A stretch of 64,000 nt of DNA, from the IMG/VR virus record IMGVR_UViG_3300020044_007580, positions 4,257-68,256 of that record. One strand, written 5' to 3'. Shown one piece after another: positions 19,203 through 49,202 of this stretch. The notes beneath the pieces were generated by a model. The model saw only the letters and a list, made by a program, of their open reading frames with translations, searched no databases and was not told the origin of the DNA. The position numbers and the translations under genes were made by a program. How positions within the stretch are numbered: the stretch's first letter is position 1; every line of letters starts with the position of its first letter. Origin of the DNA: a virus.

Positions 19203-19297
19203 CCATCGCGGGTCATCGATGGTAGACGATGCAGTAGGTACCGCACAACCTATTGCTCCCGACTCGGCGCAGCATGACCCCTGCGCCGTTTTATTTT
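19202..19297 (+). promoter_or_regulatory. Three-hairpin RNA element ending in an intrinsic terminator, with loop-loop complementarity
   Basis: CCATCG/CGATGG; GCAGTAGGT/ACCTATTGC; CGGCGCAG/CTGCGCCG followed by TTTTATTTT; loop 1 GGGTCAT is complementary to loop 3 ATGACCC. Confidence 0.65.
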
Positions 19298-19303
19298 ATA
19301 CCT

Positions 19304-30022: not shown

Positions 30023-33000
30023 TGCCTTACGAGAAGCAGAACATACCGGCGTTTGAAGGCCTGAATATGGGCATTGAGCCCGACGCCATCAAGGATACGC
30101 AGGCAGCAGACATGCTCAACCTGCGTTTCACCAAACTTGGCTATCTGGTCAATCGCAATGGCGTGCGTGCTTTTGAGTTTGACCACTATACTTCTCCTGT
30201 TCTTCCAGACATAGCAAAGATCAGTGGTGCGACAGCAATCGGAGAGTTCATCTTGTCGGCGCCTGTAACCGACAAGGTTGACTTTGAGCCACGTGGCAAC
30301 GCGGTTGTTGCATCTGTAATCAATGCGTCGCACTCGTACCCACTTGCATCATATGACCGGTTCATGGTGTATGGGTTACGCTGTAGCTATCTGTCTGAGC
30401 CGCAGAAGGCAAGGCTAGTGTATGTCCTTGTGCCAAACGCATATCTGCCAGAGTCTACGCAACAATGGCAGATTGACAACGATGCTAACGGAGCTCAGAC
30501 GCAGGGCGATTGCGTGTTCTTTTTACGCGCAGAGTATGCTGGTGATACTGAGGCGGCAAATGCAGCGGTGCCGGACCTATTAATGGCGCCGGCAAGGCGT
30601 ATGCTCCGTGGTGATTGGGTAAACTCTGGCACAGGGACGGTGCATGACCAAACGTGGGTAGAGCACTATCAGCGCATGACTCAGTATGGAAATGCTCTCG
30701 TCATTGCAGATAGACAGAACGGAGATCTAATCATACATGATAAGTGGGATGAAGCGGCAACTGGTCAAACCAAAGAGCACTTCCTGCGCATGCAAGAGAA
30801 TGCAAATGCATTCTTTGATGTAGATGTAGTCAAGGTAGACTTCCAGCTTGCGTCAGGAGAAGAGAACGGGCGCGGGGTCGAGAATGGCATGGGGTTGTAC
30901 AGATACTATCTACAGAGAAAATCATCTGTATATACGATAGATAACTACGCACCTTCACCATATGATTCGCAGGTTGGCGACGAGCTCCTAGCAGGTAGTG
31001 GCCCAACATATGCATGGGCTGAGCAGTATTCTGCGTTCAAGAGCGCATTCTTATCTGGATTTAACATTACAGACGATGGAGCAACGGACGATGACTTGGC
31101 TAGAGGCGGAGTCGCTAAGGGTTTATTCAAAGATACGATAGGGAAGTCATATGTATTTTCTGATTACAACCAGCCAACCACAATAGACTCACTACTTGAT
31201 TCAGTCACTCAAAAAAACCCCGATCTGGCAACTACATATGATGAAGACGGAAACATCGTTAATAACAATGCGGCCGACGTTTTTGTATGGAACGATGTTA
31301 AGCTGACATACTACCCGTGCACAGGGTCCGACCAAACATCAAAATTTTTGACTGCTAAAGATCGGGCATGGAGCAAGAAGCAGCCAACTACTCCAAGGAT
31401 TGTAGAGTTGTCAACAAAGTCTGGCATAAAGCAACGCGTGTCGCTTGGCGTATGGGCGTACAGATATGTATGGGTGCTTGGCAACCAGGAGTACAGCTCC
31501 CCAAGCGCACCAATGTTTGTTCCGGATAAACTATGGAGCTGTGTAAAAGATTCTCCGACCTTATCAAGACCACAATTAATTGAGCCTGTGCATGTAGAGT
31601 ATACACACGACAAGGTTCACAGAACATATCTCGGCCTTAATGTAAGTGGAACTAATAATTGGGGTGAGTCGCTTTTGTTTACCACGGATTTGTGTGTGGC
31701 TTCTGGTAGTGATTACGAGAAGATCATAACCGCAATCAAGTCTGGTCTATACGACAATGACCATGTATATGGCCCAAGTTCTCTCAATATAAACAAGCAA
31801 GTACTATCGACAGTGACGTCTAATGGGCCTGTCAAAAAACTTAACGGCACCTTCATGTCTGGGTATCAGTTTGGCATCACCATTGATACGGACGGAGCAA
31901 ACAAGTATAAAATGGAGCTTAGCCATCATTATAAGGCTAGCTTAATTGTTCCCATAACAAGAACTATTAGCGATGAATTTACCAATGGATCTGTTTTCAC
32001 CGAAGCAATCAGCGGCAGCAATGGTGTAGTCGGTGGACTTTACCGCAAAGCGATGGTTGATAGCTCTGGTTATTGGCAAGATACATATCATGAATTTGTA
32101 TTTGAAGGCGCCAACAACACTTTTGCCGTGTCCAACGATGAATCATTCCAGTCTACTTTTGATTTGGATAGCATCAAGTACAAGAAAGATGTGTACTATA
32201 ACTTGATGATCCATAGGTCAGATAAGGGAGTATGGGATGGATTAACTGACCAGTACAGAATCCCTACGCTTTTAAGGTATGTGAATAATCAGGCTCATCG
32301 ACTTATTGCAACAAAACAAAGCGCTACACCTGAGGCAATATCGCGCCTTGTAGCAGAGGGGATAGCAGAGATAAAGCTGATGGATTATACCGACTGGGCT
32401 GTCTGTCGGTCGCAATTTTTTGGTTCATACGAGTATGATAACGTTCCAAATATCGACACAATGCTGCCTAGTAAAATAAGTACAACATTTAGCAGCAGAA
32501 GGTACGACCCAACGGTTCCGGATAGTATTGACGATGGCATTATGATTGTTCCGGATATATCCTACCAAGTGCCCGGCGTCCCAATTGGCGAGCAGTATGT
32601 GTCTTGGAACGGCGATGCTTCAAGCCGTGTGATGAATGTCTTTGCGCAGTATCAATATATACTGTCAGGCAAAAATGCAGCACAGCCATGGGTGGCTGGA
32701 ACTGGTGCCTATACTGGAACTGGGGCACCTGAAAAATGGTTTGAGCTGTCCAATGTACGGATAGCAATCCATCTTGAGGGCGAAAGGCTGTTGATCCCAG
32801 AGCAAGTGTCTTCGTTCTTCCCGTCGTCATTGCTCTTCAACGCACCTAGAGTTCAGCTGAATATTGATAAAGAGAACATACCAAAGCGTGCTACTGGCAT
32901 TATGATCTTCCGAACTCTTGCTACGCATGACAATGACTGGCAGCCTACCAAGTTTGGATTAGTCAAGCAAATCACGCTCGACAAAGATGCACAGGGAAGA

Positions 33001-34845
33001 AACGTTGACTTCTCATTCTTTGACGATGTTAAGGATACGGAGTTAGACTTTGTTACGACACCGGACGAGTTTGATGGAATTGTCAACCCGCTCAAATCTT
33101 TATTCGTCAAGCCATTGAAAGAAAAGGTTTGGTACGGCAACATTGTTGAAACATACCAACCGTATGCCCCTCGTGGATATGTCGATAATATAGAGAATGC
33201 GTCAGGGACAGGTCACGTAGAAGACCTATCTCCTAATGACTTAGTTCCATATAGTAAACTTGCCTCGTGGAAAGAGCTGGTCGTCGACAACACTCAAGAC
33301 AATCGTGATTTAGGATTCAAGGGGACGTTGCGCGGAAAGCTACACGAGTACTTTATCGTGTTCAAGGATTTGAACGGAGAGTACAGTCAGCCCAAGTTGA
33401 TCTCAGACAATGGTAACCCACAGTCAGTGGACTTCACTTCAGTTCCGTCCAACAAACTATGTGCTGTTGTGCTGATTTTGTCTGGCTATCCGTATAACGC
33501 CAGCATTGACAAGTGTGAGGTATACAGGCGTTCGTATACTTTTGCGGCAACAGGAGGCAAGACCGATCCGTACTTCTATAAGATCGGCGACATCAAAGCT
33601 GAAGACGAGGGGATATTCCTTGATGACGGCATTGAGGTCAACCCTGCTCAAAAGTGGGCGCAGTATGATGATACGGCAAATGAGTACCCAGTATCAACTC
33701 CAAGGGAGGATCGTCTCGAATCTAGCATAGCATGGAGCGAGTCCGGTCAACCGTCCTGGATCAAGTATGAGAACCGGTTTGCTTTCCGTGATGGCGATGG
33801 AGATCAGATTACTGGGATGGAAGTGATCTACTCCGAGCTTATAGTGTTCAAGGAACGCTCGATGCACCGGGTAACACTGGAGAACATCAGCAACAACATT
33901 GGGCGTGTCGAGGAAGTGTCTAATACTATTGGGTGCATAGCGCCGAATACGATCATTTGCTATGACAATACCATCTACTTCTTGTCCTGGCATGGGTTCA
34001 TGAAGTACGACAACAACGGCATAAGCAAGGTAGATGGCCCTTTTGCTATAGAGCTGAACGCACGTCTGCTAGAGGAGATGAACTCCGTTCGCAACCCGGC
34101 GATACGCGATGCGTCGGTAGCACTCAACTCCGCACACCGTGAGCTATACCTGAACATTCCGGCATATGCTGGTCGACCTGCTTATGACTATCGGGATGAA
34201 GGAGTGAAGGGCCATATTTATGTCCTGAATCTAGACAACCAGTTGGCAACCAAGTTTCAGTATGAAACAGGCGACAAGCAGATCTTTACGCCGCTAAGAG
34301 ACCCGGCATACCCAAGTACATCTGGTACTGATTATCGTACCATGGCGAGACTTTATCACACCAACTCTCTTGGTCAATTATGGTCGGCCGAAACATTGCC
34401 AAAGACCCCTTACGTAAGTTCAAAGGTGTATCTTGAAGCGCCTACAACGCGTGATTACGATGAGTTTCAGCCTGGCATTACATCTTCTGGATTGCCGGAA
34501 ACGGTATCCAAGATTGTGTCAGAGCCGGTTCGCTCATGGTGGAAGTCTAAAGAGTGGACTGGCGGAGACAAGTCTTTGCTGAAACGATTGCGTATGGTGA
34601 TTGCAAATCTTGCTAAGGGTACGAACCCGCGTATTGGGACGGAGTTCAATAATGACGACTACTCGGCAGAAGCTTACCGAGAGGCTATGTTCGGAGTGAC
34701 TGGTGAGCTCAAGGTAGTTCCTAGTCGCAGAGTTGAAGGTAGTGATCGTGGTGAGCGAATGACCATTCATATCGCTAGTGAAGGAGAGACTGAGATTCAG
34801 GGACTTGGATTCCACTGGAGAAAAGTCAATACATGGAATAGATAA
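30022..34845 (+). CDS. Tail nozzle/stabilisation protein (P22 gp10 / crAss muzzle-like)
   Basis: F.GLN......I.D.QA.D.LN.RF N-terminus; beta-propeller motifs IAWSE, GDQITG, LIVFKE, IGCIAPNTI, IYFLS. Confidence 0.75.
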   Translation: MPYEKQNIPAFEGLNMGIEPDAIKDTQAADMLNLRFTKLGYLVNRNGVRAFEFDHYTSPVLPDIAKISGATAIGEFILSAPVTDKVDFEPRGNAVVASVINASHSYPLASYDRFMVYGLRCSYLSEPQKARLVYVLVPNAYLPESTQQWQIDNDANGAQTQGDCVFFLRAEYAGDTEAANAAVPDLLMAPARRMLRGDWVNSGTGTVHDQTWVEHYQRMTQYGNALVIADRQNGDLIIHDKWDEAATGQTKEHFLRMQENANAFFDVDVVKVDFQLASGEENGRGVENGMGLYRYYLQRKSSVYTIDNYAPSPYDSQVGDELLAGSGPTYAWAEQYSAFKSAFLSGFNITDDGATDDDLARGGVAKGLFKDTIGKSYVFSDYNQPTTIDSLLDSVTQKNPDLATTYDEDGNIVNNNAADVFVWNDVKLTYYPCTGSDQTSKFLTAKDRAWSKKQPTTPRIVELSTKSGIKQRVSLGVWAYRYVWVLGNQEYSSPSAPMFVPDKLWSCVKDSPTLSRPQLIEPVHVEYTHDKVHRTYLGLNVSGTNNWGESLLFTTDLCVASGSDYEKIITAIKSGLYDNDHVYGPSSLNINKQVLSTVTSNGPVKKLNGTFMSGYQFGITIDTDGANKYKMELSHHYKASLIVPITRTISDEFTNGSVFTEAISGSNGVVGGLYRKAMVDSSGYWQDTYHEFVFEGANNTFAVSNDESFQSTFDLDSIKYKKDVYYNLMIHRSDKGVWDGLTDQYRIPTLLRYVNNQAHRLIATKQSATPEAISRLVAEGIAEIKLMDYTDWAVCRSQFFGSYEYDNVPNIDTMLPSKISTTFSSRRYDPTVPDSIDDGIMIVPDISYQVPGVPIGEQYVSWNGDASSRVMNVFAQYQYILSGKNAAQPWVAGTGAYTGTGAPEKWFELSNVRIAIHLEGERLLIPEQVSSFFPSSLLFNAPRVQLNIDKENIPKRATGIMIFRTLATHDNDWQPTKFGLVKQITLDKDAQGRNVDFSFFDDVKDTELDFVTTPDEFDGIVNPLKSLFVKPLKEKVWYGNIVETYQPYAPRGYVDNIENASGTGHVEDLSPNDLVPYSKLASWKELVVDNTQDNRDLGFKGTLRGKLHEYFIVFKDLNGEYSQPKLISDNGNPQSVDFTSVPSNKLCAVVLILSGYPYNASIDKCEVYRRSYTFAATGGKTDPYFYKIGDIKAEDEGIFLDDGIEVNPAQKWAQYDDTANEYPVSTPREDRLESSIAWSESGQPSWIKYENRFAFRDGDGDQITGMEVIYSELIVFKERSMHRVTLENISNNIGRVEEVSNTIGCIAPNTIICYDNTIYFLSWHGFMKYDNNGISKVDGPFAIELNARLLEEMNSVRNPAIRDASVALNSAHRELYLNIPAYAGRPAYDYRDEGVKGHIYVLNLDNQLATKFQYETGDKQIFTPLRDPAYPSTSGTDYRTMARLYHTNSLGQLWSAETLPKTPYVSSKVYLEAPTTRDYDEFQPGITSSGLPETVSKIVSEPVRSWWKSKEWTGGDKSLLKRLRMVIANLAKGTNPRIGTEFNNDDYSAEAYREAMFGVTGELKVVPSRRVEGSDRGERMTIHIASEGETEIQGLGFHWRKVNTWNR

Positions 34846-34860
34846 ACTGGAGCATAGACT

Positions 34861-37800
34861 ATGGCGTCGATATTGCCAATGAATTTTGAAGTGCTTAAGC
34901 AGCAGGCTGCTGCTCCGAATGCGCAGCTTTCGCAGGAACAAAAAGACTTTATCGACGCCTACATGTCCAGTCTTGGTCCGTCTGGTACAGCCCCAGCAGC
35001 CGCACCTCAGCAAACAAAAGCAGTACGGTCTGGAGACGTTGAGGGTCGTAGAGCATACGTCATGCAGGAGGGTCCGGTCGTGTATGCTGATCGTCCCGTC
35101 GAACCCGCTCCACAGGCAGTTACGGCGCCAGTAGAGACCGAACCTGCCGCTGTGCCCGCTGCCGCATCTGCGCCTGCACCCGCTCAGACTCAGACCGTAG
35201 CACCATCGGTTCCTGACGCTGTTGTCCAAAACGCAATGACGCAGATCAATCCAGAGATTGCTGGATTAAGCACGCCTGTGTATACGGCTCCGGTAATCCC
35301 AGCGTCGGTTATGCCACTACTACCCCGCGTACAAGATCTTTCTGCGAGACAGATGGCATCTATCCCTGCGCTGGCTGGACCTGGAGGTGGTCGTACACTT
35401 GCAGCAACACAGGACGAGATTCCTCCTCCTCCTGCATCGCAGAAGGTTGTCACTGTCCCAGACCAGAAGCGACAGCGTCGAGCTGGGGTTGAAACGGCGC
35501 CGCCGACGCAACCCGCAGTACCTCCGTCGACAACAGCACCAGCTGCACCAAAGGCTACTACGACACCTCCCGCTACTACGCCAGCGCCTAAGACTACTGC
35601 GCCTAAAGGCAAGACTCAGCCGCCTTCTGCAACGCCTCCTGTCGTTGCTCCAGGAACTACAGTTACACCCGAAGGCTCTGCAGAGCAAGCTCCGGCAGAA
35701 CCTCCGCGTGGGGCTATGTATTGGTACGATCAGATGTATCCGGAGAAAACCCCGGAGCAAATGCAGCAACGCGTAGATCGGGCTATTCAAGAGGGCGAGC
35801 CAGAACAGCGATATAAAGAAACAACCCCCGAGCTGCCTACACAGATCTGGAAGCGTCCTACGCAAGCTAAACCTCCTGCACAAGCTCCAAAGCCAGCGGA
35901 GCAAGGTGCGGCGCAGCCTAAGCCAACCTCAGCGCTTCCACCAACATTTCAGCAGTTAAAGCAGAACGTACAAGCTGCAACGAAGATAAGCCCCATAAAG
36001 TATGCAGACATGGGCGACGTGTCTTGGACCGGTGGGTCTATGCAGGTAGAGGTGGGTGGAGGAAATACTCTGCCTCTCAAGAAGTCGCCTTCAGGGTGGC
36101 AAGTGCAGATGGACGACCAGTGGGTTGATGTCGACAAGAATACGCCGCTTTATGATGCATTGCAAAAGAGCACGTCATCTGCACAATCCGCATTTGCACC
36201 AGTCGCGACCTACGGCAAGTATCCGTTGTATGGTGATCCGGAAACAGGGGCTGACTACAACCTAGGCAGCCAGCAATCCCCACTCCCGGTCAAAATGACT
36301 GTTGGTCCAGGATTGGTTCCGCAATTCATTGACAGCAGATATTCTGTAGGCAAAGGCAAAAGTATCGGCGATTACAGAGAAGTTGATCCTGAGACTCAAC
36401 AGCAAGGATTCCCGGAAGAACTGGTACCACAATTCCAGAAAGCGCATACACAGGCTGTGATGGCATTCCAGAATAGGATGGACAACTATGCTATGCTGCT
36501 TAACGATAATGGCAAGCCTGTTGTAGCATCTTATGATGAAGCGGTAAGTAGACTATCACAGCGACTAGACCCTGCGTACAACACGAAGATTGCAACCACT
36601 GGGTACATGCAGAAGCAGGAGTATGGGGACAAGATACAGGGGCAGGTAAAGTCAGTGCTTAAGCAGCTAGTAGACAGAAACGCAAAGCTCATGGGTATGG
36701 CAGCGGCCATGCAAGAAGTTGCCGAGCCTGACATAGATGTTGACATTGCAGAGTTAACATCTACAAGAGCAAGATCGTCGGCTGGAATGCAAGAGTCGCA
36801 AAGCGCAAGCGGATCGATTAGCAACATTGGTACTGATATAGACTATATCTTGGAACAAAGAGCCAAGGCTATAGTTATGGATGAGGTGTACCAAGGAAGT
36901 TCCAAGTTTGGCTTAGCGCTAGACAGTGGATACAGACCTGGTACGCTGGACCAAGATTACATAAGCCCTAACATGGTCGCTGCATATGCGCGAAAGCTTG
37001 TGGATGCATGGCCAGATCGACTTAAGAAGCTTGGATATAAGGAGCTGCAGGACCCAGCTGTAAACCCGGACTTGTTCTACAAGACTGTAAATTCCTTGCA
37101 ACAGTCTAAAGACCCGCAAGCTCCACAGCGGCTAGCTGATTTCTTGAGTGCTACGGTCGGAATGGATACAGAGATTACTGGTGGACAACCAATGGCTGCT
37201 AAGGTTAAGCCGTACAATATTGGCGTCACTGCTGTAGTTGCTCCAGAGTCAACAAACATACAGGGATCCGGAGCGGCAGCCGCTAAGGTAGATCGTAGTG
37301 AGTCAGCTCCGTCTGCTGGAAGGGCTAAAGTCCCTAGTGGATCGCCTCGTGATGCTGAAAACAATACGTTCAAAAGCGTCGACGAAGCTCTGGCTACTTA
37401 TTCTACATCGGCTCCAAAAACTATTGACACAGACGCACGCAATATGTACAACTTGCTTGCATATATGAAAGACCCGTCAATTCCCAATGCAAGTATTATG
37501 TCCGGTAGAGCTGATGCTGCACTGCGCGGTCTTCGTGCATTGTCTGACGCTGCTCGGACAAAGCCTGACTTTAATAAAACAGTTGGCAATGCTATGCAAG
37601 GGCATATGAATACGTTGCTTAGAAACATAGCTCTGTTATCCAATCAGTATGACGAAAGAACTAAGGAGTCAAAATTAACTACTCAAGTAGCACAAGACTT
37701 TTTGGAAGGAGTCAAGCTTGTATATGGAAGCAATTTACCTAAGTCAATTATGATTAAGGATAGCAAAGATGGAAAAGAAAGAATGATGAATGCAAATGAG

Positions 37801-38157
37801 CTCAAGGGAGTTCTGGCGTCAGCTAACAGTGTCGGTCTAGACTATGTCAATGTAGATTTGTCAAACAATCCTGGTGTTCAATATGTTGCAAATAGCATCA
37901 AGGGTTATAGCAACCCTGCTGGGTTTGACCCAACTGGAGCTAACGCTGACACTGCATATCAACAGTTAGGAGCATCTACATTCGGAGCTAGTGAGTTCGT
38001 GCGCAACATATATACATCGCTTGGCTTACCATATGCAGATGCACAAAGCACCAAATCGTTCATTAATCTTATGATGGCAAGGAAGTCAGCTAGTACAGTG
38101 GAGGGCGCTATTGAGTCGGTAAGAAAAGGCCAGGGCAAAGAGTATATCACACGTTAA
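34861..38157 (+). CDS. Large internal virion (cargo/ejection) protein
   Basis: 1098 aa, Pro/Ala/Thr-rich disordered N-terminal third, no Cys, directly after the nozzle. Confidence 0.6.
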   Translation: MASILPMNFEVLKQQAAAPNAQLSQEQKDFIDAYMSSLGPSGTAPAAAPQQTKAVRSGDVEGRRAYVMQEGPVVYADRPVEPAPQAVTAPVETEPAAVPAAASAPAPAQTQTVAPSVPDAVVQNAMTQINPEIAGLSTPVYTAPVIPASVMPLLPRVQDLSARQMASIPALAGPGGGRTLAATQDEIPPPPASQKVVTVPDQKRQRRAGVETAPPTQPAVPPSTTAPAAPKATTTPPATTPAPKTTAPKGKTQPPSATPPVVAPGTTVTPEGSAEQAPAEPPRGAMYWYDQMYPEKTPEQMQQRVDRAIQEGEPEQRYKETTPELPTQIWKRPTQAKPPAQAPKPAEQGAAQPKPTSALPPTFQQLKQNVQAATKISPIKYADMGDVSWTGGSMQVEVGGGNTLPLKKSPSGWQVQMDDQWVDVDKNTPLYDALQKSTSSAQSAFAPVATYGKYPLYGDPETGADYNLGSQQSPLPVKMTVGPGLVPQFIDSRYSVGKGKSIGDYREVDPETQQQGFPEELVPQFQKAHTQAVMAFQNRMDNYAMLLNDNGKPVVASYDEAVSRLSQRLDPAYNTKIATTGYMQKQEYGDKIQGQVKSVLKQLVDRNAKLMGMAAAMQEVAEPDIDVDIAELTSTRARSSAGMQESQSASGSISNIGTDIDYILEQRAKAIVMDEVYQGSSKFGLALDSGYRPGTLDQDYISPNMVAAYARKLVDAWPDRLKKLGYKELQDPAVNPDLFYKTVNSLQQSKDPQAPQRLADFLSATVGMDTEITGGQPMAAKVKPYNIGVTAVVAPESTNIQGSGAAAAKVDRSESAPSAGRAKVPSGSPRDAENNTFKSVDEALATYSTSAPKTIDTDARNMYNLLAYMKDPSIPNASIMSGRADAALRGLRALSDAARTKPDFNKTVGNAMQGHMNTLLRNIALLSNQYDERTKESKLTTQVAQDFLEGVKLVYGSNLPKSIMIKDSKDGKERMMNANELKGVLASANSVGLDYVNVDLSNNPGVQYVANSIKGYSNPAGFDPTGANADTAYQQLGASTFGASEFVRNIYTSLGLPYADAQSTKSFINLMMARKSASTVEGAIESVRKGQGKEYITR

Positions 38158-38166
38158 TTGTAAGCC

Positions 38167-41100
38167 ATGTCATTAGCAGAACTACAAAGATTAGCGTTAA
38201 TCAATGCTGAGCTTGTGCAAAAGGGCAAACCATTGCAAAGCTATGGACTACCTAGTGGACAGGCCAGCGAGTACGCAGGGCTCGAGGGGCTGTTCTCATC
38301 AGCTCAAAGCGCTGGTTCGTCTAGCTTCTTCCGCGATACAATTGGAGGGGCAGTCTCAGGATTAACATCTCTTATAAAGACAGGGACTGAGGCTGGCAAT
38401 TATGTAGGCAAGCAGGTCGGGCTACCTAATCTTGGATCTAACCTCTATACGTTCCTGACCCCTGGTTCATTCCTGCCTGACGTATTGTCACGTGCAACTA
38501 CCGGGAAGACTCTTGCCGAGCAACTGAGTAGCCTTGGGCAAAACGTAGCCAAAGATACATCGTCGACAGCCTATCAGGTTGGCAACATTCTGGGTCAAGC
38601 AGGGACAGCTATACTAGGAACTGGCGCGGTGTCGGCTGGACTCAAAGGACTTGGCATTGGAGCAAAGGCTATCAATGCCGCAGGGTTTACTACGACAGCA
38701 GCGGACATAGGCGCCGGCACGGCGATTGGCGGAGCGCTGCAAGCTGCTGGAGACTGGGAGCAGTTCGATAAGTCGAACGGCCAGCCTGGAGCTAAGATGA
38801 GCGGGGCCGAGTTCCTGACGAGAATGGGCATGGGAATGATCACGGGTGGACTATCTGCTCCTCTGAACCCACGCTGGGGTAAGCTTGCAAACATTGGGTT
38901 TGATGCGCTAGTTGGTGGTGCTACTCAAGGCGCGCTTGAAGGTGCGGGATATCTTGCTGCAAACAAAGCACGCCAAGAAGAGATCGAGAAAACATACAAG
39001 TCCAACATTGCTACCAGTGCCGCTATCAATGCAGCTATCGGCGCTGGGGCTCGTGGAGTTCAAGCGTTGCTGACTCCTAAGCCTGCAGCGGCCGAACCCG
39101 TTGCTCCTGCTGCGCCTGCTACACCGGTAGCAGCTCTGCCTGCTGCACAAGGAGTGACACCAACTGCCCCAACAACTATCAATCCGCTAGATCAGTTCAA
39201 GGCAAACATATCGGAATGGGCTAAGACGACCCCGCCCAATGAGGTAAACATAATTGCGCAGCAACTTGGAGCAAAAGACGGCTCAGCTCAAAGTCTGATA
39301 GAGCGCGTCGACCAGATCGTCGAGGACATGGATCCGAGCGGCGAGAATATTGCAGGTACATTGGAGTGGTTGGACAAGCAGTTTGGAACACAGTGGCACC
39401 CTAAAGGCACAGGCCAAGTACTGCCGGTTCAACCTGTAGCTGGAGCAGAACAACCTCAAGTTTCAGCAGAAGAGGCGGCAGAGCGAGCAGCTATTCAGGA
39501 AGAATCTGCTCCGTTTCAATATGCTCCGCCTACAGAACGAGCTAGTCAAGCTCTCGTGCCTAAGATAGAACTGTCACAGCCACCTGGTTTAAAACTACCA
39601 GCTGTTGATGTTGCAAAGGGCCAGGGTATAGATATCACTCCTCCAGAATTGTTGCGCTCTTCTATTCAGATTGCGGAGGCACATTATGTTGCAACACGCA
39701 AGATGTCTACATACTTGGAGCAACTACCACAGGACGTTGTATCCAAGATCGCAGCTAACGTAAAAGCTCGGAAAGCCACACCGGCTAGTATAGTGACAAA
39801 GTTGCAATCGGATGCAGCTGGATATGATCCAGCGCAAACTGGAGCGGGTCTTCAGTGGATGGAGCGTACATTCAACTCTCTCGTATCCCAAGTTCCAACA
39901 GTCAAAGAATCAGAGCGGTTAGTTTCGACACCGCCTACACCCGAGCCTGTACCTTCACCAATACAAGGAGAACCCAATGTTCAGCCGAGGCCTGAGGACG
40001 TCAATGTCAGTGAACCCGGACAACCTGAGCCAATCGCAGGAGAGCCGCCCGTCCAAGCGGTTGAGCCCAGTGAAGTCCAACAAGCAGAAGCTATCCCGCC
40101 CACTGGTGCGGAAGGTCAAGCGCCAGAAGAAGTAACAACACCAATTACAGAACCAATTGCAGGAGAGCCAAATGCCACTCAAGAAGGGCAAGTCACAGAA
40201 GGTGGTCAGCCAGAATATCTCGGAGTTCCACAAGGGGAAGACGTACAAGAAAACGTCCCAGAAGTTCGGCAAGAAGAAGGCGAACGCCCAAGCGATAGCA
40301 GTAGCCCTGTCGAAGGCGGGCAAGAGCAAGCCCAGTATTTCAGAGGAAGTCTAAGTACAAAGGAAAAAGTTGCGCTCGGAGGTTATGCAGGTCTGCCGGA
40401 TTCTCTAGTAAAGTCGAGTAATCCTGAGCTGGACGATCCGGTTGGGAGCGTGCCCGACACTGGTGTGCGCCGATCGCTAATAAACCGTGCAGCAGAATTT
40501 GTCAATAATGCATATAATTATTTAGACGGTTTCCATGTATCAAGAAACGTCATGGCAACCGTCAGAGATCCCATACGCGCGCGCCAAGATCTGGTACAAC
40601 TTTTGTCTGGCGAACCATTAATTAAACCTGTCGTGGGTAAAGAGAATCCTTTGACAGATGTGTGGAATGTTATATCTGCTGGAAAGCTGCCTCCCCTCCC
40701 AACTCTGACGGATTTAAGAAGGGACTCTCGAGAGAAGGTAAGAAACAATGTATGGGGCAAGGGAGAGCAGGAGGTGTATGTTCGAAGAAGAACCAAGTTA
40801 GCCATTAAGTATATATATTTAGATGACGCGGAGCAAGCAGCTAGGATCCCTGTAGCGCTAGTTACATGGTATCAGAGGGGACATGAGTATGCTGGCAACC
40901 CACCTGAGGAAACGCTGGTGTCTTTGATTCTTTCGCCAGATGTTCTTACCAGGTTTTCTTCAAGAAGAATAGCGGCGGAACCAATGCCGCCACAGCTTTT
41001 GAGTGACGCGCAATCATCTGGCACGTCTGAACAACAGCAACTAGATCTATCAAGCAGCTCTGTTGTAGCAGACAATTCATTAAGTAGACAGGCAAAATCT

Positions 41101-44100
41101 ACGCCAGCTAATAACAACGACCCTGTTATCACTGTCGCTGGAAGCGAGTTGTATAATGAGTTTGTTGGGGACATTGAACTCGATAACCCTGAGTCTTTGG
41201 TTGACCAGTACTTGCGGGATGGTTCAATTACAGACTTCCCAAATGCAACAAGTGATCAGATTGCGCGAGCTGAAGAGATTGTAGAAACGAATCTCAATGG
41301 TCGCAAGATTCAGGACCTTGCATCAATGATCATTGATCAAGAAAACACGCTATCTAGTGAGTCAGAAAAGATGGCGTCTTCGATTCAGAAGTTTTTGATT
41401 GGAGACACTACTGGCAGTCATACGCTAGAGATGTCGGTAGCTGGCGCACAGAACCCATTGCGCAACCTGATTGGAATAATTGCTGACTATACTGGAGCCG
41501 ACGCTCCAGACATGCGACGGATGAAGAAGGATGCCCAGGCAACGATGCTTGATGATGGCGTAATGCGATCTGATTATGTCTTTGAAAAAGATGGCGTACC
41601 GGTCGCAAGTATGACATACTATAAGGAGCCCGGCAATAAGCGTGCGATTATAATTCTAGAGCCTAGCAAAGAACTGCAGGCTGCTATCCGCCTACAGCAG
41701 AGCGAGGTTATCAACCGTACAATGGAGGACCAGTATGGTGTATCGTCGGATATTGGAGAAATGTTTGCGGAGACTGAGACCGGCATTAGCCCAGCTGAAG
41801 TAGCTCAGCTAGACGTACAGCAAACTAGAGACAAACGTCAGCTGCCTTATCAAGAGAACGTTGAGTCGCGCTCTCAGATGCAGCAGATATATCAAGAGCA
41901 GATAAAAGAATATGCTAACACGTACGATGTTCCTGTCGAGACGTTTGATGCAGCTGTTGTTGCGGCCTCTAATGCAGAGGCGGAGTCTGGACGCCCTGGA
42001 GATATTTTCCAAACGGATGCTTGGCAGTCATACGTTGACGGACTACAAGATCCGGAACAAGTAGCAATAGCTGAGGATCATAACTATCGAACCGATGTAC
42101 GGGAAGCGTTGGCGTTCAAGCGTCAGATTGAAATGGCAACGCAAACAGTTGCTGGCCCTGCAAAACCCAGGCGCACTAAACGTAGCAAGCCAGAGCAAAA
42201 GGGCTTTGACTTTAACGAAGGTGCTGCAAAAGCTTCATTGGGCATCTTGCCGGCGATTGCGGCGCCTACGCTTGAAGATGACAAGGAGTATTTCCCTGGC
42301 GTAAATGGCGCAACTCTTAAGGGGCTGCTGTTTGCTGTTGGAGGTGGCGCCTTTATGGTGCATCATATCAGCAAGAAGCCAATCATGCATGTCGGCGCTG
42401 AGATTACTGGCTTGACTACGCAGCGCACGACATGGATGCAGTCGCTTCGGAATCGAATGGTTGGCGTTCGTGATAGGATTACTGGATCTGATGCTAAGAA
42501 GTTGCAGCATGCCACTATAGAACACAACGCCCGCATATATGGCGAAGCCATGAATCTAAGCGAAGAGCAGATCAAGGAGTTGGCCGCTAAAAACATCAAG
42601 GACAATGATGCATTGGAGAGCATGCCTAGCATGTTTGGACTCGGTGGCGTAACATCACTGTCTATCTTGGGCAAGCAAACAGGCAATGCGCTTCCAGGCA
42701 GGTTGGCTGAAGCAGCATATGCCGGACGTGCGATTGGAGAGAAGAGATCTATTGCTATCAACCTTGCTCAAAAAGCATTCAAGTCTTTGCCAGAAGATAG
42801 GCAGGTTGCTCTTGGTCAGTTGCTTATTGACATAGACTATGCCACTACCAATAGGATAAATGCCGAGCAGATCATGAGCACTGAGAATAGGTGGACTCCT
42901 AAGGCTGCAACGCTGCGGGATCTTTGCAAGCAAGAGATCGAGAATGTATTAAAGAAGACCGCAGCACAGAATCCTAGCGCGTGGCCTCAGCTCGAACAAG
43001 ACTACAGGATGTTAGATCCCATCTATGATGATGCGCGGCGGGCATATTTTGAGATGGTAGCATTTGAGCAGGCAGGCGTAGAAAGTATTGACAGTGGGTT
43101 TAAGAGTTACGGAAAGAAAATTGATCAACTGGAGAAGGTAAAGGCTGGAGCGTTAGAGCAGCTGCAATCAGCGCAAGCCAAGGGGGCATCTCTTGAGGAG
43201 ATAAAAGCAATCACAAGTGCTATTGAGGGGATCAACAACCAGGTGATCATGGCGATGAAGATGCGCAATGTGATTGGCGATTTACGCAACGCTCGAGATA
43301 TGTCTGTTGTGCGCAAGTATATCCCAAGATGGTTTGACGTAGACCGACATGAGTTCAGGATTAGAATCAAAGAAACTGCAACAGACATTGGACTGGTTCA
43401 GTCATTCAAGGACGAAGCCGGCATGACTAGATTCTTGGAAATGATGAACAAGCAGTTGACCGACGAAGATCGTAAGCTGAACGGCATCCCTGCAACTCAT
43501 CCGCAGACCGGTAGGGATATCAATACATTCTCTGACTTCTATAGATCCCAGGGAGGAAGTGTTGAGGTAGTGGTCAACAAGCAGAAGATCACTAAAATCA
43601 TTGAGCATACAGCGGATCAGATGGCTCTGAGAGAAGCTCTCGAAGCATTGCAAGACTCTGTTGCAGATGGTGGTGGCATAACAGCGGACAGATTCAAACG
43701 GTTCTTTGAGGCGTATGGCAGTGACTTGTCGAACATGATAACTGCCAAAGAGCTTGACGACATCGGTATTTCTGGCCGAGAAATAGACAAACTGGTTGCA
43801 GCAAACAGCAGAGTGTCAACAGCACAGATTCGACGACTTATCAATGCTGTGGCTGTACCCAGAATGACCGATGTAACAATGCATCGTGCTAACGTTTTAG
43901 GATACGCCCCGGAGAGAATAAACAATCTTACCAAGGAAGTCAATCCTTTGTTCTCTAGAGACATGGTTGACTTTATTGATAACGGCTTTAACTTCTTCTT
44001 GGCCAGAACCAAAAGCCGGGCAGAGAGTGCGAGCTTACGTCGAGAGATAAACTCTCAGATCATTGATCTTACTGCGCGTGGAATTGCGCCAACCTATGTC

Positions 44101-46017
44101 GATAGAATAGCAAGTATTGGTAGCGGTCTGCGCTGGAAGCCAACAACAATGACTACAGCATTAGGTAAGGAGATACTCCTAAGCCGTTTTGATCGTAAGA
44201 TAGCAGCGTTTGGAGCATTCAAAATGATGGGAGGCAATGTCCCATCTGCGGTGAAAAACGTATTCATGGGCTTTATCAACACGGCTACGCAGTTATCATC
44301 AGAGACCGATGGTAGCTTGGCTAAAGCTATGTCACTTGGGTATAAGGGTGAGGCGGCTTACTGGCAAATGTTGGCAAAAGATCGTTCGATGCGGAAGGAA
44401 ATGGCCGCGCACCTGCGTTCTCCAGATAGTCTTCAGACCATCGACGAACAGATAAATAGGGCTATAAAGTCTAACGACGCGGCGCGTGCGGTGTGGATTC
44501 TGGCTCGAGAGTCAGGGGCATTTGACGCTGTGTTCTATAAGAACCTTGAGCGTGTACTTAATCCAGAGACTATATCAAAAAGCAAGATTGCACAGAAAAT
44601 AGTTGATATAGCAGCATTGCCGCAAGTCTTAGCCGAGCATCACAATCGTGGCGCTTCATTTATGACTGGAGCTATGGCGCATCTGCAACAGTTCCCGGCT
44701 GATGTTGAGGGCGCGTTTGCCAAGGGACTGCAGTTCCAGGGTATGACGCAAGGTAACTTCAACAACTACAACAAGTCGGCTCTTGAGCGCAAGCTTTTGG
44801 AATTGCCGTTTGGCAGATCTTTCTTGTTGCTGTCTAATGCAGCGCTGCGTAGCAACGAACAGCTTGGCGCGCACTTTGTCGCAGCTGCAATGAGGCCGAC
44901 GCATTCAAAGATTTGGGTTCCTCTGTTGGCGTATGCCGGTACTTCTATGGTATTCACTGGATTGGTTGGCGCGCCGATCGCTGGTGACGTTTACAAGACC
45001 GTCAACTTTATAGCAGACTTGTTCGAGAAGGACGACGACGAGCTAAAGGCAATCAAAGAAAGTCCGCTTGAAGCGTTGCAGCGCAAGGCAGGTGAATCGG
45101 CCGCAGCTATGGGCTTTAGCCAAGAGCTTGGCGAGTGGGTGTTCAAGAACATATCTATCGGCACTTCTTCGGTTCTTACTGGCAAGAACTTCAGCACAGA
45201 GAATACTATTATCAACTTTGCAACACAGTGGCCGCCTCCTGGAATCTCTGCCCCACTGGCAGCCTTTGACTACTTCAGAAACTTTGGTGACATGCAGACT
45301 CCTGCCGCAATGGTTATTGGTGGGACGTCCGCATTCAATGCAGAGTTGGGACGTATATTCCGTGGGTTCGAGCAGGTTCGAGTTGGTGGCAAGCTTGGCA
45401 AGAGTGGCGATCAGGTGTCTACAGGGTATGACCTAAAGAACTATGTAGGCGATGTGTTGTTTGGTTCAGACTTGGACGACGCTTTGTATGGTACAAGTAA
45501 GCGTGGCGGAGGTGGTAAGATATACTTTGCTGATCAGGCAAACGCTTACATGAAGACTATAGATAACATCAGTGGGATAAAGCTTGACCAGAGACTCCAC
45601 AAGGATCCATTCTTCGTTAAGACAGAAGGCCTGCCGGACAAGCAGGCCATGGTGGAGGCTGTCAATAAATTCAGAAGCTTGAACATTGTCAACTACGATG
45701 CACTTGCGGAACAACGTCAGCGTACTCTTGACATATGGAATGGCATAGCATCAGATCCAGAAAAGCGTAATGTCTTAGTTCGCATAGCTATGGAAGGACA
45801 GCAGGGGTCAAGACAGAGCGACCCAGGGGCATGGATTGATGGGGCGGGCGACAAGATAAAGTCTTATTATCTAGGCCTTGCAGTGCAGCGTTCGTACTCA
45901 CAGATGGGGATACCGCCCCCTGAGTTTAAGTATCAAGAAGCGGACCCTATGTTCCCGGTGTGGAAGTATATTGCTGACAAGGCAAAGCGTGGTGGGATTA
46001 TGATTGCACCAGAATAG
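38167..46017 (+). CDS. Giant internal virion (cargo/ejection) protein
   Basis: 2616 aa; Gly/Ala membrane-tropic N-terminus, P/E/Q linkers, internal hydrophobic hairpin, helical C-terminal half; last gene of the virion operon. Confidence 0.7.
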   Translation: MSLAELQRLALINAELVQKGKPLQSYGLPSGQASEYAGLEGLFSSAQSAGSSSFFRDTIGGAVSGLTSLIKTGTEAGNYVGKQVGLPNLGSNLYTFLTPGSFLPDVLSRATTGKTLAEQLSSLGQNVAKDTSSTAYQVGNILGQAGTAILGTGAVSAGLKGLGIGAKAINAAGFTTTAADIGAGTAIGGALQAAGDWEQFDKSNGQPGAKMSGAEFLTRMGMGMITGGLSAPLNPRWGKLANIGFDALVGGATQGALEGAGYLAANKARQEEIEKTYKSNIATSAAINAAIGAGARGVQALLTPKPAAAEPVAPAAPATPVAALPAAQGVTPTAPTTINPLDQFKANISEWAKTTPPNEVNIIAQQLGAKDGSAQSLIERVDQIVEDMDPSGENIAGTLEWLDKQFGTQWHPKGTGQVLPVQPVAGAEQPQVSAEEAAERAAIQEESAPFQYAPPTERASQALVPKIELSQPPGLKLPAVDVAKGQGIDITPPELLRSSIQIAEAHYVATRKMSTYLEQLPQDVVSKIAANVKARKATPASIVTKLQSDAAGYDPAQTGAGLQWMERTFNSLVSQVPTVKESERLVSTPPTPEPVPSPIQGEPNVQPRPEDVNVSEPGQPEPIAGEPPVQAVEPSEVQQAEAIPPTGAEGQAPEEVTTPITEPIAGEPNATQEGQVTEGGQPEYLGVPQGEDVQENVPEVRQEEGERPSDSSSPVEGGQEQAQYFRGSLSTKEKVALGGYAGLPDSLVKSSNPELDDPVGSVPDTGVRRSLINRAAEFVNNAYNYLDGFHVSRNVMATVRDPIRARQDLVQLLSGEPLIKPVVGKENPLTDVWNVISAGKLPPLPTLTDLRRDSREKVRNNVWGKGEQEVYVRRRTKLAIKYIYLDDAEQAARIPVALVTWYQRGHEYAGNPPEETLVSLILSPDVLTRFSSRRIAAEPMPPQLLSDAQSSGTSEQQQLDLSSSSVVADNSLSRQAKSTPANNNDPVITVAGSELYNEFVGDIELDNPESLVDQYLRDGSITDFPNATSDQIARAEEIVETNLNGRKIQDLASMIIDQENTLSSESEKMASSIQKFLIGDTTGSHTLEMSVAGAQNPLRNLIGIIADYTGADAPDMRRMKKDAQATMLDDGVMRSDYVFEKDGVPVASMTYYKEPGNKRAIIILEPSKELQAAIRLQQSEVINRTMEDQYGVSSDIGEMFAETETGISPAEVAQLDVQQTRDKRQLPYQENVESRSQMQQIYQEQIKEYANTYDVPVETFDAAVVAASNAEAESGRPGDIFQTDAWQSYVDGLQDPEQVAIAEDHNYRTDVREALAFKRQIEMATQTVAGPAKPRRTKRSKPEQKGFDFNEGAAKASLGILPAIAAPTLEDDKEYFPGVNGATLKGLLFAVGGGAFMVHHISKKPIMHVGAEITGLTTQRTTWMQSLRNRMVGVRDRITGSDAKKLQHATIEHNARIYGEAMNLSEEQIKELAAKNIKDNDALESMPSMFGLGGVTSLSILGKQTGNALPGRLAEAAYAGRAIGEKRSIAINLAQKAFKSLPEDRQVALGQLLIDIDYATTNRINAEQIMSTENRWTPKAATLRDLCKQEIENVLKKTAAQNPSAWPQLEQDYRMLDPIYDDARRAYFEMVAFEQAGVESIDSGFKSYGKKIDQLEKVKAGALEQLQSAQAKGASLEEIKAITSAIEGINNQVIMAMKMRNVIGDLRNARDMSVVRKYIPRWFDVDRHEFRIRIKETATDIGLVQSFKDEAGMTRFLEMMNKQLTDEDRKLNGIPATHPQTGRDINTFSDFYRSQGGSVEVVVNKQKITKIIEHTADQMALREALEALQDSVADGGGITADRFKRFFEAYGSDLSNMITAKELDDIGISGREIDKLVAANSRVSTAQIRRLINAVAVPRMTDVTMHRANVLGYAPERINNLTKEVNPLFSRDMVDFIDNGFNFFLARTKSRAESASLRREINSQIIDLTARGIAPTYVDRIASIGSGLRWKPTTMTTALGKEILLSRFDRKIAAFGAFKMMGGNVPSAVKNVFMGFINTATQLSSETDGSLAKAMSLGYKGEAAYWQMLAKDRSMRKEMAAHLRSPDSLQTIDEQINRAIKSNDAARAVWILARESGAFDAVFYKNLERVLNPETISKSKIAQKIVDIAALPQVLAEHHNRGASFMTGAMAHLQQFPADVEGAFAKGLQFQGMTQGNFNNYNKSALERKLLELPFGRSFLLLSNAALRSNEQLGAHFVAAAMRPTHSKIWVPLLAYAGTSMVFTGLVGAPIAGDVYKTVNFIADLFEKDDDELKAIKESPLEALQRKAGESAAAMGFSQELGEWVFKNISIGTSSVLTGKNFSTENTIINFATQWPPPGISAPLAAFDYFRNFGDMQTPAAMVIGGTSAFNAELGRIFRGFEQVRVGGKLGKSGDQVSTGYDLKNYVGDVLFGSDLDDALYGTSKRGGGGKIYFADQANAYMKTIDNISGIKLDQRLHKDPFFVKTEGLPDKQAMVEAVNKFRSLNIVNYDALAEQRQRTLDIWNGIASDPEKRNVLVRIAMEGQQGSRQSDPGAWIDGAGDKIKSYYLGLAVQRSYSQMGIPPPEFKYQEADPMFPVWKYIADKAKRGGIMIAPE
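39977..40135 (+). CDS. Nested +1-frame basic peptide (52 aa) carrying the capsid N-terminal motif
   Basis: AAGGAG 6 nt before the ATG; MFSRGLRTSMSVNPDNL...KVKRQKK; matches MCP residues FRRGLRTTETVNPDNI. Confidence 0.6.
   Translation: MFSRGLRTSMSVNPDNLSQSQESRPSKRLSPVKSNKQKLSRPLVRKVKRQKK
40172..40354 (+). CDS. Nested +1-frame small basic protein (MPLKKGKS...QAIAVALSKAG)
   Basis: AGGAG 6 nt before the ATG; 60 aa; motif I recognise from stand-alone small phage proteins (DUF6496-like C-terminus). Confidence 0.7.
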   Translation: MPLKKGKSQKVVSQNISEFHKGKTYKKTSQKFGKKKANAQAIAVALSKAGKSKPSISEEV

Positions 46018-46019
46018 TA

Positions 46020-47051
46020 TTAAGAAGACAACCGAGCAACCATGTCTGATAGGCGCTGTGCATCTTTCTGGAACTTCTCGATGACTGCTTGCAATTCTGG
46101 AGACTGTGTCGTAGCTAAGTCTGGATTGTTAGGCGCAGATTGCTTGGCCCAGACTTGGCGTATACTGTCGTGGCTGTTAGAAGTATTGCGCTTGATGTAC
46201 TTTTGTGTGATGTTGATCGAGCTGTGATCTAGCAGGCGCGTTGCCTCAAGAACCCCAACTCTTTCTGCCATCATGGTTCCGGCTGTATGTCGTAACGCAT
46301 GTGGCGTGAACTTGTATGGTAGGTTTAGCTTAGAGATGTACCCTCGCAGTCCACCTTGACTTGCTGGCTCCGACCCTGTACCTGGGAATAGGTAAGCATT
46401 CCTAACGCTGCGCTGTTCTCTGAGGCGTATGTACTGTTGCGCTATATCTTTGAACGTCTGACCATTAGGCATGACAATGTCCAGTGGGATGCTCTTCTCT
46501 ATGTCCTCGACTGTACGTGATTTCTGTCTGACAATGAAGAAGGACAACTCGTCCTTGGTCAGCTTGTAGTTCTTTGCTGTTAGTGCTGCAGAGATTCGTG
46601 CTCCAGTAAAGAGCATGACACACATTGTTACGTAGTGCTTGATGTCCCCGTAGGTAGAACGGTAGTTGTCCATACGCTGAAACAGGACTTGCAGTTGATC
46701 GTCGGACATTGCTTTGTCAGACCAGTCACTACTAGTCTTGATGGCGAATCGCTTTATAAGCTCAGAGGCGGCAGTGCTATCAATCAAGTATTGATCTTTC
46801 AGTATAGCTGCAAGAGTCTTGGCATACTTGTAGCGAGCATTGCGAGTGTGCGAGGATTGAGCTAAGTAATCTCTGATCAACAGAACTAGCTCGACTCCGT
46901 TTGGGAATGTATCTTGTTTGTAGTAGTCTAGCAGTACATTCATAGACCTGCGAGCAAGTTGCTGCAAAGACTTTGATGGCACGTCTCGTTTTTTAGTTGG
47001 CATCATACAGTACACATTGACTGCGTTCAATAGTTGGGCTCTAGTTGTCAT
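46020..47051 (-). CDS. Tyrosine recombinase/integrase
   Basis: Catalytic set R (FTGARIS), K (RQKS), HxxR (HALRH), H (LLDHS), Y (TQKY). Confidence 0.9.
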   Translation of the reverse strand: MTTRAQLLNAVNVYCMMPTKKRDVPSKSLQQLARRSMNVLLDYYKQDTFPNGVELVLLIRDYLAQSSHTRNARYKYAKTLAAILKDQYLIDSTAASELIKRFAIKTSSDWSDKAMSDDQLQVLFQRMDNYRSTYGDIKHYVTMCVMLFTGARISAALTAKNYKLTKDELSFFIVRQKSRTVEDIEKSIPLDIVMPNGQTFKDIAQQYIRLREQRSVRNAYLFPGTGSEPASQGGLRGYISKLNLPYKFTPHALRHTAGTMMAERVGVLEATRLLDHSSINITQKYIKRNTSNSHDSIRQVWAKQSAPNNPDLATTQSPELQAVIEKFQKDAQRLSDMVARLSS

Positions 47052-47373: not shown

Positions 47374-47939
47374 ATTGTTACTGTGCTGTATGGGTTGGTG
47401 GTAGAATCTTTCGTTATTGTTTGTGATTGTAGTAGTATGTAGCGTGCGACTGCCTCGGGCACTGATCGTACTGCAAACTCGTTGAGTATCTTCTGAACAG
47501 CAGTCCTGCCGGCTCGTTCGCTCATGCTTAGTGCGGTAGTAGTTTCCTTGACGGTGTATCCAGCAGCCAAGTATGCAAGCATGGAGCTGGCAATCGGTGG
47601 CAGTTGGGCATCTGCGTTGAGCGCAGTGATCCTTGAGTAATGGTTACGATATAGCAGTACGAGAATGCTACGAGCGAACTGCGGCGTAGAATGTGCGAGG
47701 CTGTGCCACGCACTATCTTCTGTAGTCCTTCTATAGACAAGCCCCTCTATAGTCGGCGTGCCGTACGGCAGCAGAAGACTGTACCGCACGCTGTATGTTG
47801 GGTGCAACAGGACCGCCTCAAACCCTTGGTCGGTACGCGCAGATCCAGCGAGCATCGTCTTGTGAATCTCTGCTATACATGAATCAAGATCTAATGCTTT
47901 GATGTCTGATATGTTGTAACGGTATTTCATGTTATGCAA
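47370..47939 (-). CDS. LuxR-type HTH regulator
   Basis: LAYLAAGYTVKE...ALSMSER.....V.KI...F.VRS..EAV. Confidence 0.65.
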   Translation of the reverse strand: MHNMKYRYNISDIKALDLDSCIAEIHKTMLAGSARTDQGFEAVLLHPTYSVRYSLLLPYGTPTIEGLVYRRTTEDSAWHSLAHSTPQFARSILVLLYRNHYSRITALNADAQLPPIASSMLAYLAAGYTVKETTTALSMSERAGRTAVQKILNEFAVRSVPEAVARYILLQSQTITKDSTTNPYSTVTI

Positions 47940-49143: not shown

Positions 49144-49168
49144 ATGAACTCCTGATATATGGGGTAAT

Positions 49169-49202
49169 AAAAAAAAGCATGCCACAACACACTACAGCAT
49201 GC
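49169..49202 (-). terminator. Probable intrinsic terminator
   Basis: GCATGC-N14-GCATGC followed by T8 on the minus strand. Confidence 0.5.

Follow-up and report, generated by a model that had tools for sequence, protein, structure and literature searches.

Nucleotides 40172..40354 of the window, a 64,000-nt stretch of DNA that corresponds to bases 4257-68256 of the 68,256-bp IMG/VR record IMGVR_UViG_3300020044_007580 (a record with direct terminal repeats, from a complete 68-kb freshwater phage genome), are likely to code in two frames, as the gene of a small basic protein and as part of a giant host gene that is read through it. In the first frame, which appears to be the older reading, lies a complete gene for a predicted three-helix, basic phage protein that is probably translated from the late mRNA of the giant gene, with ribosomes initiating internally at AGGAG-N6-ATG. 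Other ribosomes would read straight through, one base out of step, into a protein of 2616 amino acids (aa), and over the small gene this second reading would yield an acidic, aromatic-poor and probably disordered linker between domains. The overlap would have arisen when a giant multi-domain virion gene of the polyvalent type was extended over a small head-module gene that already existed. The homology of the small gene, the recurrence of its nesting and the selection signatures of both frames are established.

The nested open reading frame (ORF) starts with ATG at 40172, ends with TAA at 40352-40354 and comprises 60 codons (product MPLKKGKSQKVV...SKPSISEEV). It lies wholly within the 2616-aa ORF at 38167..46017, on the same strand and one base ahead of the host frame, and has its own start codon and ribosome-binding site. 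This AGGAG-N6-ATG ORF had been picked out in a preliminary description of the window, every position of which was reproduced. Two further details given there were also recovered: the nested ORF shares its frame with a 52-aa ORF upstream, 36 nt separating the stop of the latter from the nested ATG, and the host frame reads GEPN at both ATGs (...QGEPNV... and ...AGEPNA...).

Recurrence of nesting and selection on both frames

A scan of IMG/VR with the alignment of the small-protein family confirmed 162 relatives, of which 80 loci were kept, and the open frames that span the small gene were measured for each. At 11 of the 80 loci, the small gene lay wholly inside a same-strand ORF of 776 to >2687 aa. 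These 11 loci correspond to 10 distinct sequences (L069 is the same as L070, and L054 is the contig of L002). At all nested loci, as in the window, the host frame was the small frame +2, and the host protein extended for at least 203 aa before the small gene and at least 249 aa past it. Compared by BLASTP and with a profile built from the window family, the hosts fell into at least six groups, between which similarity was confined to the overlap stretch. When compared with the domain repertoire of polyvalent proteins, the hosts of L021 (LPD38, E 1.5e-33) and L069 (GNAT, HATPase_c_3 and a sub-threshold ART-PolyVal at 25.7 bits vs 31.2) contained such domains, and the window host had no Pfam domain above threshold; no Pfam domain was found in seven other hosts of nested copies. 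The remaining 69 loci comprised 54 free-standing copies, 13 in-frame fusions and two short spanning ORFs. One free-standing locus (L038) was dropped before codons were analyzed, since the match started only at residue 2, on a codon that is not a start; this left 53 free loci with 41 distinct sequences.

The nested copies have kept the form of a gene. A start codon was present in 11/11 (ATG in 10, GTG in one), lengths ranged from 53 to 88 aa with proper stops, and a motif of the GGAG/GAGG type occupied the Shine-Dalgarno (SD) place in 7-8 of the 11. The family profile matched exactly one place in the window genome and in each of the 10 other nested records; seven of these 10 records were at least 95% complete (CheckV), so that with the window included all eight such genomes (8/8) carried a single copy. 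None of the 10 nested products (0/10) was present in a collection of 15 billion proteins. The free-standing protein P0038, the first 46 residues of which are identical to those of the L009 gene and whose contig is as long as that of L009, was present in it.

Short ORFs spanned the small gene in the +2 frame at L078 (3733-4560, 276 aa) and L079 (3970-4485, 172 aa), where neither alternative frame contained stops. These two loci may be intermediates or may reflect chance.

Selection on the small frame preserves its amino-acid sequence. In nested copies, the mean proportions of nonsynonymous (pN) and synonymous (pS) differences were 0.245 and 0.680, respectively (pN/pS 0.36, 55 pairs), compared with 0.235 and 0.822 in free-standing copies (820 pairs). 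The host-frame reading of the same bases had a pN/pS of about 1.6, which was indistinguishable from that of the unused +2 frame of free copies (1.7). Variation within the lineage followed the same pattern. Logan contigs from four metagenome runs, belonging to four studies (freshwater, aquatic, sediment, and aquaculture), were placed on 39700-41400, and variants were counted at the 40 listed of 47 sites. No RNA run was among the 20 runs listed. Nine of the listed sites fell in the nested gene. Six of these were at its third position, all synonymous there and all amino-acid-changing for the host; three were at its first position (Q30K, N38D, and A39S), conservative changes in columns that vary within the family; and none (0/9) was at its second position, which is the third position of the host. 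Outside the nested gene, the host third position led among the listed sites (13/31 vs 8 and 10), and this variation was lost inside the nested gene (Fisher p 0.019). The ATG and the AGGAG were invariant in the metagenome contigs, and positions 40158, 40167, and 40169-40171 varied.

Several of the metagenome contigs matched only the first 50 nt of the nested gene (40172-40221) and diverged on both sides, and loose contig ends were found at 40172 and 40212-40221. Since these contigs match this stretch and then diverge, other phages in the same samples share only the conserved stretch.

The host frame is kept only as open, in frame and hydrophilic. Over 46 codons, free copies contained a mean of 2.44 stops in frame +2 and were stop-free in 5/41, whereas frame +2 was without stops in 11/11 nested copies. 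The open frame is not a by-product of composition, since frame +1 was more often open in free copies (16/41) and yet all 11 nested copies use +2. T at the third position of the small gene (T3), which is the first base of a host codon, accounted for 2.8% in nested and 16.8% in free copies. T3 occurred at 0/161 stop-prone sites in nested copies vs 100/628 in free copies, and at sites unable to make stops it occurred at 14/323 vs 204/1176; the depletion was seen across genomes of 34-63% GC (Mann-Whitney p 7e-7). As a consequence, the host reading is acidic and nearly free of phenylalanine, tryptophan, tyrosine, and cysteine, which made up 0.8% of its residues in nested copies vs 8.8% in the same frame of free copies. 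Hydrophobic residues amounted to 12.7% vs 20.2%, and the net charge was -2.7 vs +1.7. The host reading has thus been shaped into an acidic, non-aromatic linker. The pN/pS of about 1.6, like that of an unused +2 frame, agrees with the earlier proposal that the acidic linker is the alternative reading of the small gene.

Insertions and deletions near the nested gene also preserve the host frame. Those observed in metagenome contigs were multiples of three, including +GAA at 40783. One of them is a cassette that begins in the tail of the nested gene and is replaced in near-identical phages by GTGAG at a 40338->41112 joint, a net difference of 768 nt or 256 codons that leaves the host in frame. 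The cassette-lacking variant was found in contigs of runs X2 (a 12,312-nt contig) and X11, and it matches a gap in the host relative P0122. At the same site, a different insert is present in P0123, and P0124 and P0125 are without one. Across three different insert states, the five relatives all retain a single ORF. Two codons past the joint, the small ORF of the deletion variant gains a stop, as worked out by hand; since the breakpoint falls within the variable tail of the nested gene, the small proteins of the variants differ in tail and stop. The dual-frame constraint that the preliminary description had proposed as a check was therefore found, in the small frame as a pN/pS of 0.36 and in the host frame in stops, T3, indels, and composition, and both frames are under selection.

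Alternative explanations, origin and known parallels

Several observations weigh against coding in two frames or narrow its reach. The pS of nested copies was just moderately lower than that of free copies (0.68 vs 0.82), the host reading showed no conservation at the amino-acid level across families (pN/pS 1.6), and seven variant sites stand outside the counts. The nested families of L004, L021/L028, and L066 have weak SD-like motifs only. The 46-column tree was unresolved, with five changes required for the nested state, and a single origin of nesting was not rejected by the approximately unbiased (AU) test (p 0.244); for this reason the nested copies may share ancestry and may not be independent samples. 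In the four relatives of the window host, the nested gene was deduced from the host-frame peptide together with the metagenome contigs. The window host can be regarded as a polyvalent protein by analogy only, because it contains neither a domain of those proteins nor any other known domain, and the predicted fold of the small protein offers no functional lead.

It is improbable that the small ORF is a silent relic, swallowed and untranslated, that has stayed intact through youth or through constraint on the host linker. Gene callers never call the nested copies (0/10 in the protein collection), some of these have weak SD motifs, and one origin of nesting is compatible with the tree test, all in favor of such a relic; however, across otherwise unlike host families it is the small reading that is conserved (0.36) and not the host reading (1.6), and within the lineage 6/9 listed variants fell on the third positions of the small frame and 0/9 on those of the host frame. 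The retention of start codons and proper stops in all nested copies at lengths of 53-88 aa, the new stop with which the ORF of the deletion variant closes two codons past the joint, and the status of the nested gene as sole copy in the eight genomes that are at least 95% complete, window counted, also argue against a relic. Still less probable is a programmed frameshift fusion, in which either the N-terminal part of the host would shift by +1 into the small frame or a start at 40172 would be followed by a -1 slip into the C-terminal 1880 aa. The host frame is indeed the small frame -1, the usual direction of frameshifting in phages, and elsewhere large proteins with ART-PolyVal or LPD23, as well as proteins of 152-362 aa, carry the small domain in frame as their N-terminus. 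A fusion made by frameshift is nevertheless unlikely because the window gene contains no slippery X_XXY_YYZ heptamer and none is conserved among the nested copies, where it occurs in 2/11 at differing places, vs 13/41 in free copies. Moreover, the +1 route would need neither a conserved start codon nor an SD motif, and nested copies retain a stop and a variable basic tail just as free copies do.

The least credible alternative, to which hardly any weight is given, is that the 2616-aa ORF is not one gene, and that two genes flank a free-standing small gene with the frame between them open by chance or through an assembly error. In its favor, 5/41 free copies are stop-free in frame +2 over 46 codons and the third positions of the small gene are rich in G/C, which makes stops rare; furthermore, no known domain connects one half of the window protein with the other. 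Against this stand the absence of any in-frame stop from 38167 to 46017, the four relatives, down to 49% identity, that are single ORFs with the same order of parts, and the three insert states beside the gene, all of which keep the frame. All 11 nested copies, in at least six host families, have the same relative frame though +1 is more often open, the T3 depletion reaches sites that are unable to make stops, and independent contigs from four runs agree with the window.

For the reading of one stretch as two genes, internal initiation is the simplest mechanism, because a simple consensus scan of 39500-40700 revealed no promoter or terminator on the + strand and because the RNA around the nested start was not more structured than its shuffles (z +1.05; its fold was equalled or bettered by 174/200 shuffles). 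The host frame is most likely younger than the small gene, since the small gene is widespread and constrained, and the host reading is only its shadow, a peptide that is not conserved. The preliminary description had suggested that a cargo gene absorbed the small gene, and the host pN/pS of about 1.6 fits this suggestion, but the direction of the event is a deduction. More speculatively, and with a low probability, giant injected or virion proteins of phages might grow by swallowing neighboring genes out of frame, the small protein might be an obligate partner of these giants (e.g., a packaging adaptor or a DNA-riding chaperone) with which nesting locks co-expression, and the strongly conserved 160 nt might serve as a portable junction for the exchange of unrelated domain cassettes between phages. 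The idea of a portable junction arises from the cassette polymorphism, which begins exactly at the 3' end, and from the contigs of other phages, which share only this stretch.

Whole genes embedded in a second frame are familiar from the Rz1 gene, which lies in the +1 frame of Rz in phage lambda and its relatives. The present case is similar in that a whole small gene with its own start occupies a second frame of a larger phage gene. It differs in that the small gene is not a lysis gene and that its host is a giant multi-domain protein rather than a partner of 150 aa; in addition, the embedded gene is here the widespread and conserved one, whereas the host reading over it is unconstrained. Rz1-like o-spanins are defined by a lipoprotein signal with a lipobox cysteine. 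Such an identity was rejected for the 60-aa product, which has no cysteine, no signal peptide and no hydrophobic N-terminal segment; it has no lipobox because it has no cysteine. Across phages, the spanin pair is described as embedded, overlapped or separate (PMC6139136; PMC5295617), and in this it parallels the present small gene, which is found nested, fused or free.

The two frames also conform to viral overprinting (reviews: PMC8227390; PMC6195259; PMC7017920), in that one frame is strongly conserved and the other is compositionally odd and fast-evolving. In classical overprinting, a new small ORF arises inside an old gene, whereas here the young linker of a long gene would lie over an old small gene, and the present arrangement, unlike the classical one, recurs in at least six host families. 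With the polyvalent proteins of phages and conjugative elements, giant multi-domain proteins catalogued by Iyer et al. (2017; PMC5512222), the host of L069 shares domains; the window host has none of the catalogued domains. In the main text of PMC5512222, the words "overlapping" and "frameshift" do not occur, "nested" is used only for a hairpin fold, and no embedded gene is described. The titles and abstracts retrieved on polyvalent proteins with overlapping genes, or on nested genes and overprinting in phages, likewise do not describe the arrangement.

The overlap has consequences for annotation and for the study of dual coding. A conserved phage gene becomes invisible to standard annotation whenever it is nested (0/10 products among ~15 billion proteins), though it is the sole copy. 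The case also represents unusually clean natural dual coding with a polarity opposite to textbook overprinting, an old small gene under what is probably a young host reading. The many free copies act as built-in controls against which T3 avoidance and linker composition can show what dual coding costs.

The small protein and its family

The window product matched phrog_2423 (E 5.6e-9, 36.9 bits), with residues 1-54 aligned to profile positions 1-42 of 52, and its in-frame fused relatives matched the same family. Against the Pfam family DUF6496 (PF20106) it scored 17.8 bits (E 0.0044), under the 24-bit gathering cut-off. Since some close relatives carry PF20106 (P0011 and P0021 in precomputed annotation; L081 at 26.2 bits), the window protein is, by its sequence, best classed as belonging to a related subfamily of DUF6496 and not as a certified member. 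A word-seeded search retrieved 169 proteins of 33-105 aa at E <= 1e-3, the best of which were 76-83% identical, and a profile search retrieved 1915 cluster representatives with an E-value of 1e-3 or less, 177 of them at 1e-10 or less. The nearest clusters were viral hypothetical proteins, 17% of them with PF20106. In an alignment of 39 sequences of the small-protein family (A2), the residues M1, P2, L3, G6, N15, I16, E18, H20, G22, T28, K31, G33, A37, Q40, A41, and A43 were invariant, and the window protein holds 16/16 of them. The homology check proposed in the preliminary description thus yielded many homologues of the 60-aa product, and its statement that MPLKKG..QA.A.A proteins stand free in many phages was borne out by the phrog_2423 match, the cluster representatives, and the free loci.

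The small protein is very basic, with a net charge of about +8. AlphaFold2 with A2 predicted a three-helix bundle (predicted local distance difference test score, pLDDT, 82) with helices at residues 9-20, 23-32, and 34-48. A Foldseek comparison of the predicted fold with the PDB gave nothing at E <= 1e-3, and that with BFVD gave uncharacterised phage proteins only (best E 0.038); the PDB sequence profiles of A2 and of the host-family alignment (A1) gave nothing meaningful. Among isolated phages, a tblastn search with the small protein found only Enterobacter phage phiEap-2 (E 8e-3). The members of phrog_2423 and DUF6496 are small proteins, none with a known function, and a literature search for "DUF6496" found no paper.

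Genomic context gives some indication of the role of the family. Free copies were located within the head/packaging module, in the interval between terL and the portal gene (L019 and L047), after the portal gene (L006), and after the major head protein gene (the L029/L030 group). At least 20 of the 41 distinct free loci had a head-module gene (TerL, portal or capsid type) within 4 kb, a lower bound obtained by BLAST propagation. Proteins of 648-1253 aa with ART-PolyVal or LPD23 also begin with the domain in frame, namely P0184 (ART-PolyVal, 32.1 bits, passing the cut-off of 31.2), P0166 (29.6 bits, failing it), and P0141 (LPD23, 27.9 vs 27). The fusions at 13 IMG/VR loci, in which the small domain forms the N-terminus of proteins of 152-362 aa, contained no second domain in Pfam or PHROGs. 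The small domain is therefore combined with polyvalent-type proteins in frame in some cases and out of frame in others, and its nested, fused, and neighboring arrangements tie it to giant polyvalent-type proteins that are presumably delivered with the virion.

Free copies near terminase, portal, and capsid genes, the polyvalent fusions and the sole nested copy per genome lead to the tentative suggestion, drawn from context and held with less than even confidence, that the small protein may be a head- or virion-associated basic partner of the giants that binds nucleic acid or cargo. Nesting, in-frame fusions, and head-module synteny provide a first clue to what DUF6496-like proteins do and suggest a route by which giant multi-domain proteins accrete sequence.

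The host gene, its surroundings and the upstream ORF

The host ORF, which has no in-frame stop throughout, is the last of three giant ORFs in the phage genome (Table 1). No relative of the window host protein was found in Pfam, PHROGs or the PDB. Four relatives (P0122-P0125), each called as a single protein of 2311-2536 aa, align with it end to end with the same order of parts, down to 49% identity. In A1, the host-frame peptide over the nested gene was the best-conserved stretch of the N-terminal half, and its flanks were barely alignable. Isolated phages contained no match to the host gene in a near-identity DNA search, nor in a tblastn search with the C-terminal 1885 aa of the host. A close-relative scan of viral contigs found no host gene, and profile scans of genome contigs and metagenome contigs with the host were also negative; a scan of viral contigs with A1 retrieved L002 only, by the overlap peptide.

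Table 1. Positions in the window of the nested gene, its host, and other annotated features
Feature	Position	Strand	Remarks
Terminase large subunit	9516-11030		Head module
Portal	11350-13311		Head module
L-alanyl-D-glutamate peptidase-like protein	14048-14896	+	Within head module
Major head protein	16016-17305		Head module
Glycosyltransferase	19253-20575	+	
Three giant ORFs (1607, 1098, 2616 aa)	30022-46017		Downstream of structural module
Host gene	38167..46017	+	2616-aa protein, last of three giant ORFs after structural module
P/E/Q/G-rich acidic host linker	39940..40360	+	In the host frame, the nested gene is read as residues 669-730
Upstream 52-aa ORF	39977..40135	+	Same frame as nested gene; status uncertain
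Shine-Dalgarno-like AGGAG	40161..40165	+	Six bases 5' of nested ATG
Nested small gene	40172..40354	+	60-aa basic protein, phrog_2423/DUF6496-like, predicted three-helix bundle
Cassette	40339..41111	+	773 nt starting in tail of nested gene; 5 nt in near-identical phages
Phage integrase	46020-47051	-	After giant ORFs
Weak DNA polymerase III beta-like protein	47932-49185	-	Below Pfam cut-off

The 52-aa ORF upstream of the small gene had been regarded as the first member of a nested two-gene mini-operon, and the host as having absorbed more than one basic-protein gene. Neither view was supported. For the upstream ORF, no family was found in Pfam or PHROGs and no relative in the 81 other loci, and the other nested families had nothing comparable ahead of the small gene. 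Its eight listed variants, two of them synonymous in its own frame and three in the host frame, showed no coding signature. The host peptide over its start and first 25 codons is conserved in P0124.

The host peptide E-P-I-A-G-E-P is present twice, at 40029-40050 and at 40141-40171. The second copy contains the SD of the nested gene, and the first falls inside the upstream ORF; the occurrence of the peptide at both places suggests that the start region underwent a short duplication. Residues 2-17 of the upstream ORF resemble residues 7-22 of the major head protein (11/16 identical; E 3e-4 in the window), and the likeness at the DNA level between 39977-40135 and the stretch 16016-16081 of the head gene is modest. 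As the small gene, where it stands free, is often located behind the capsid gene, the upstream ORF might be a remnant of a head-module fragment that was carried in with the small gene.

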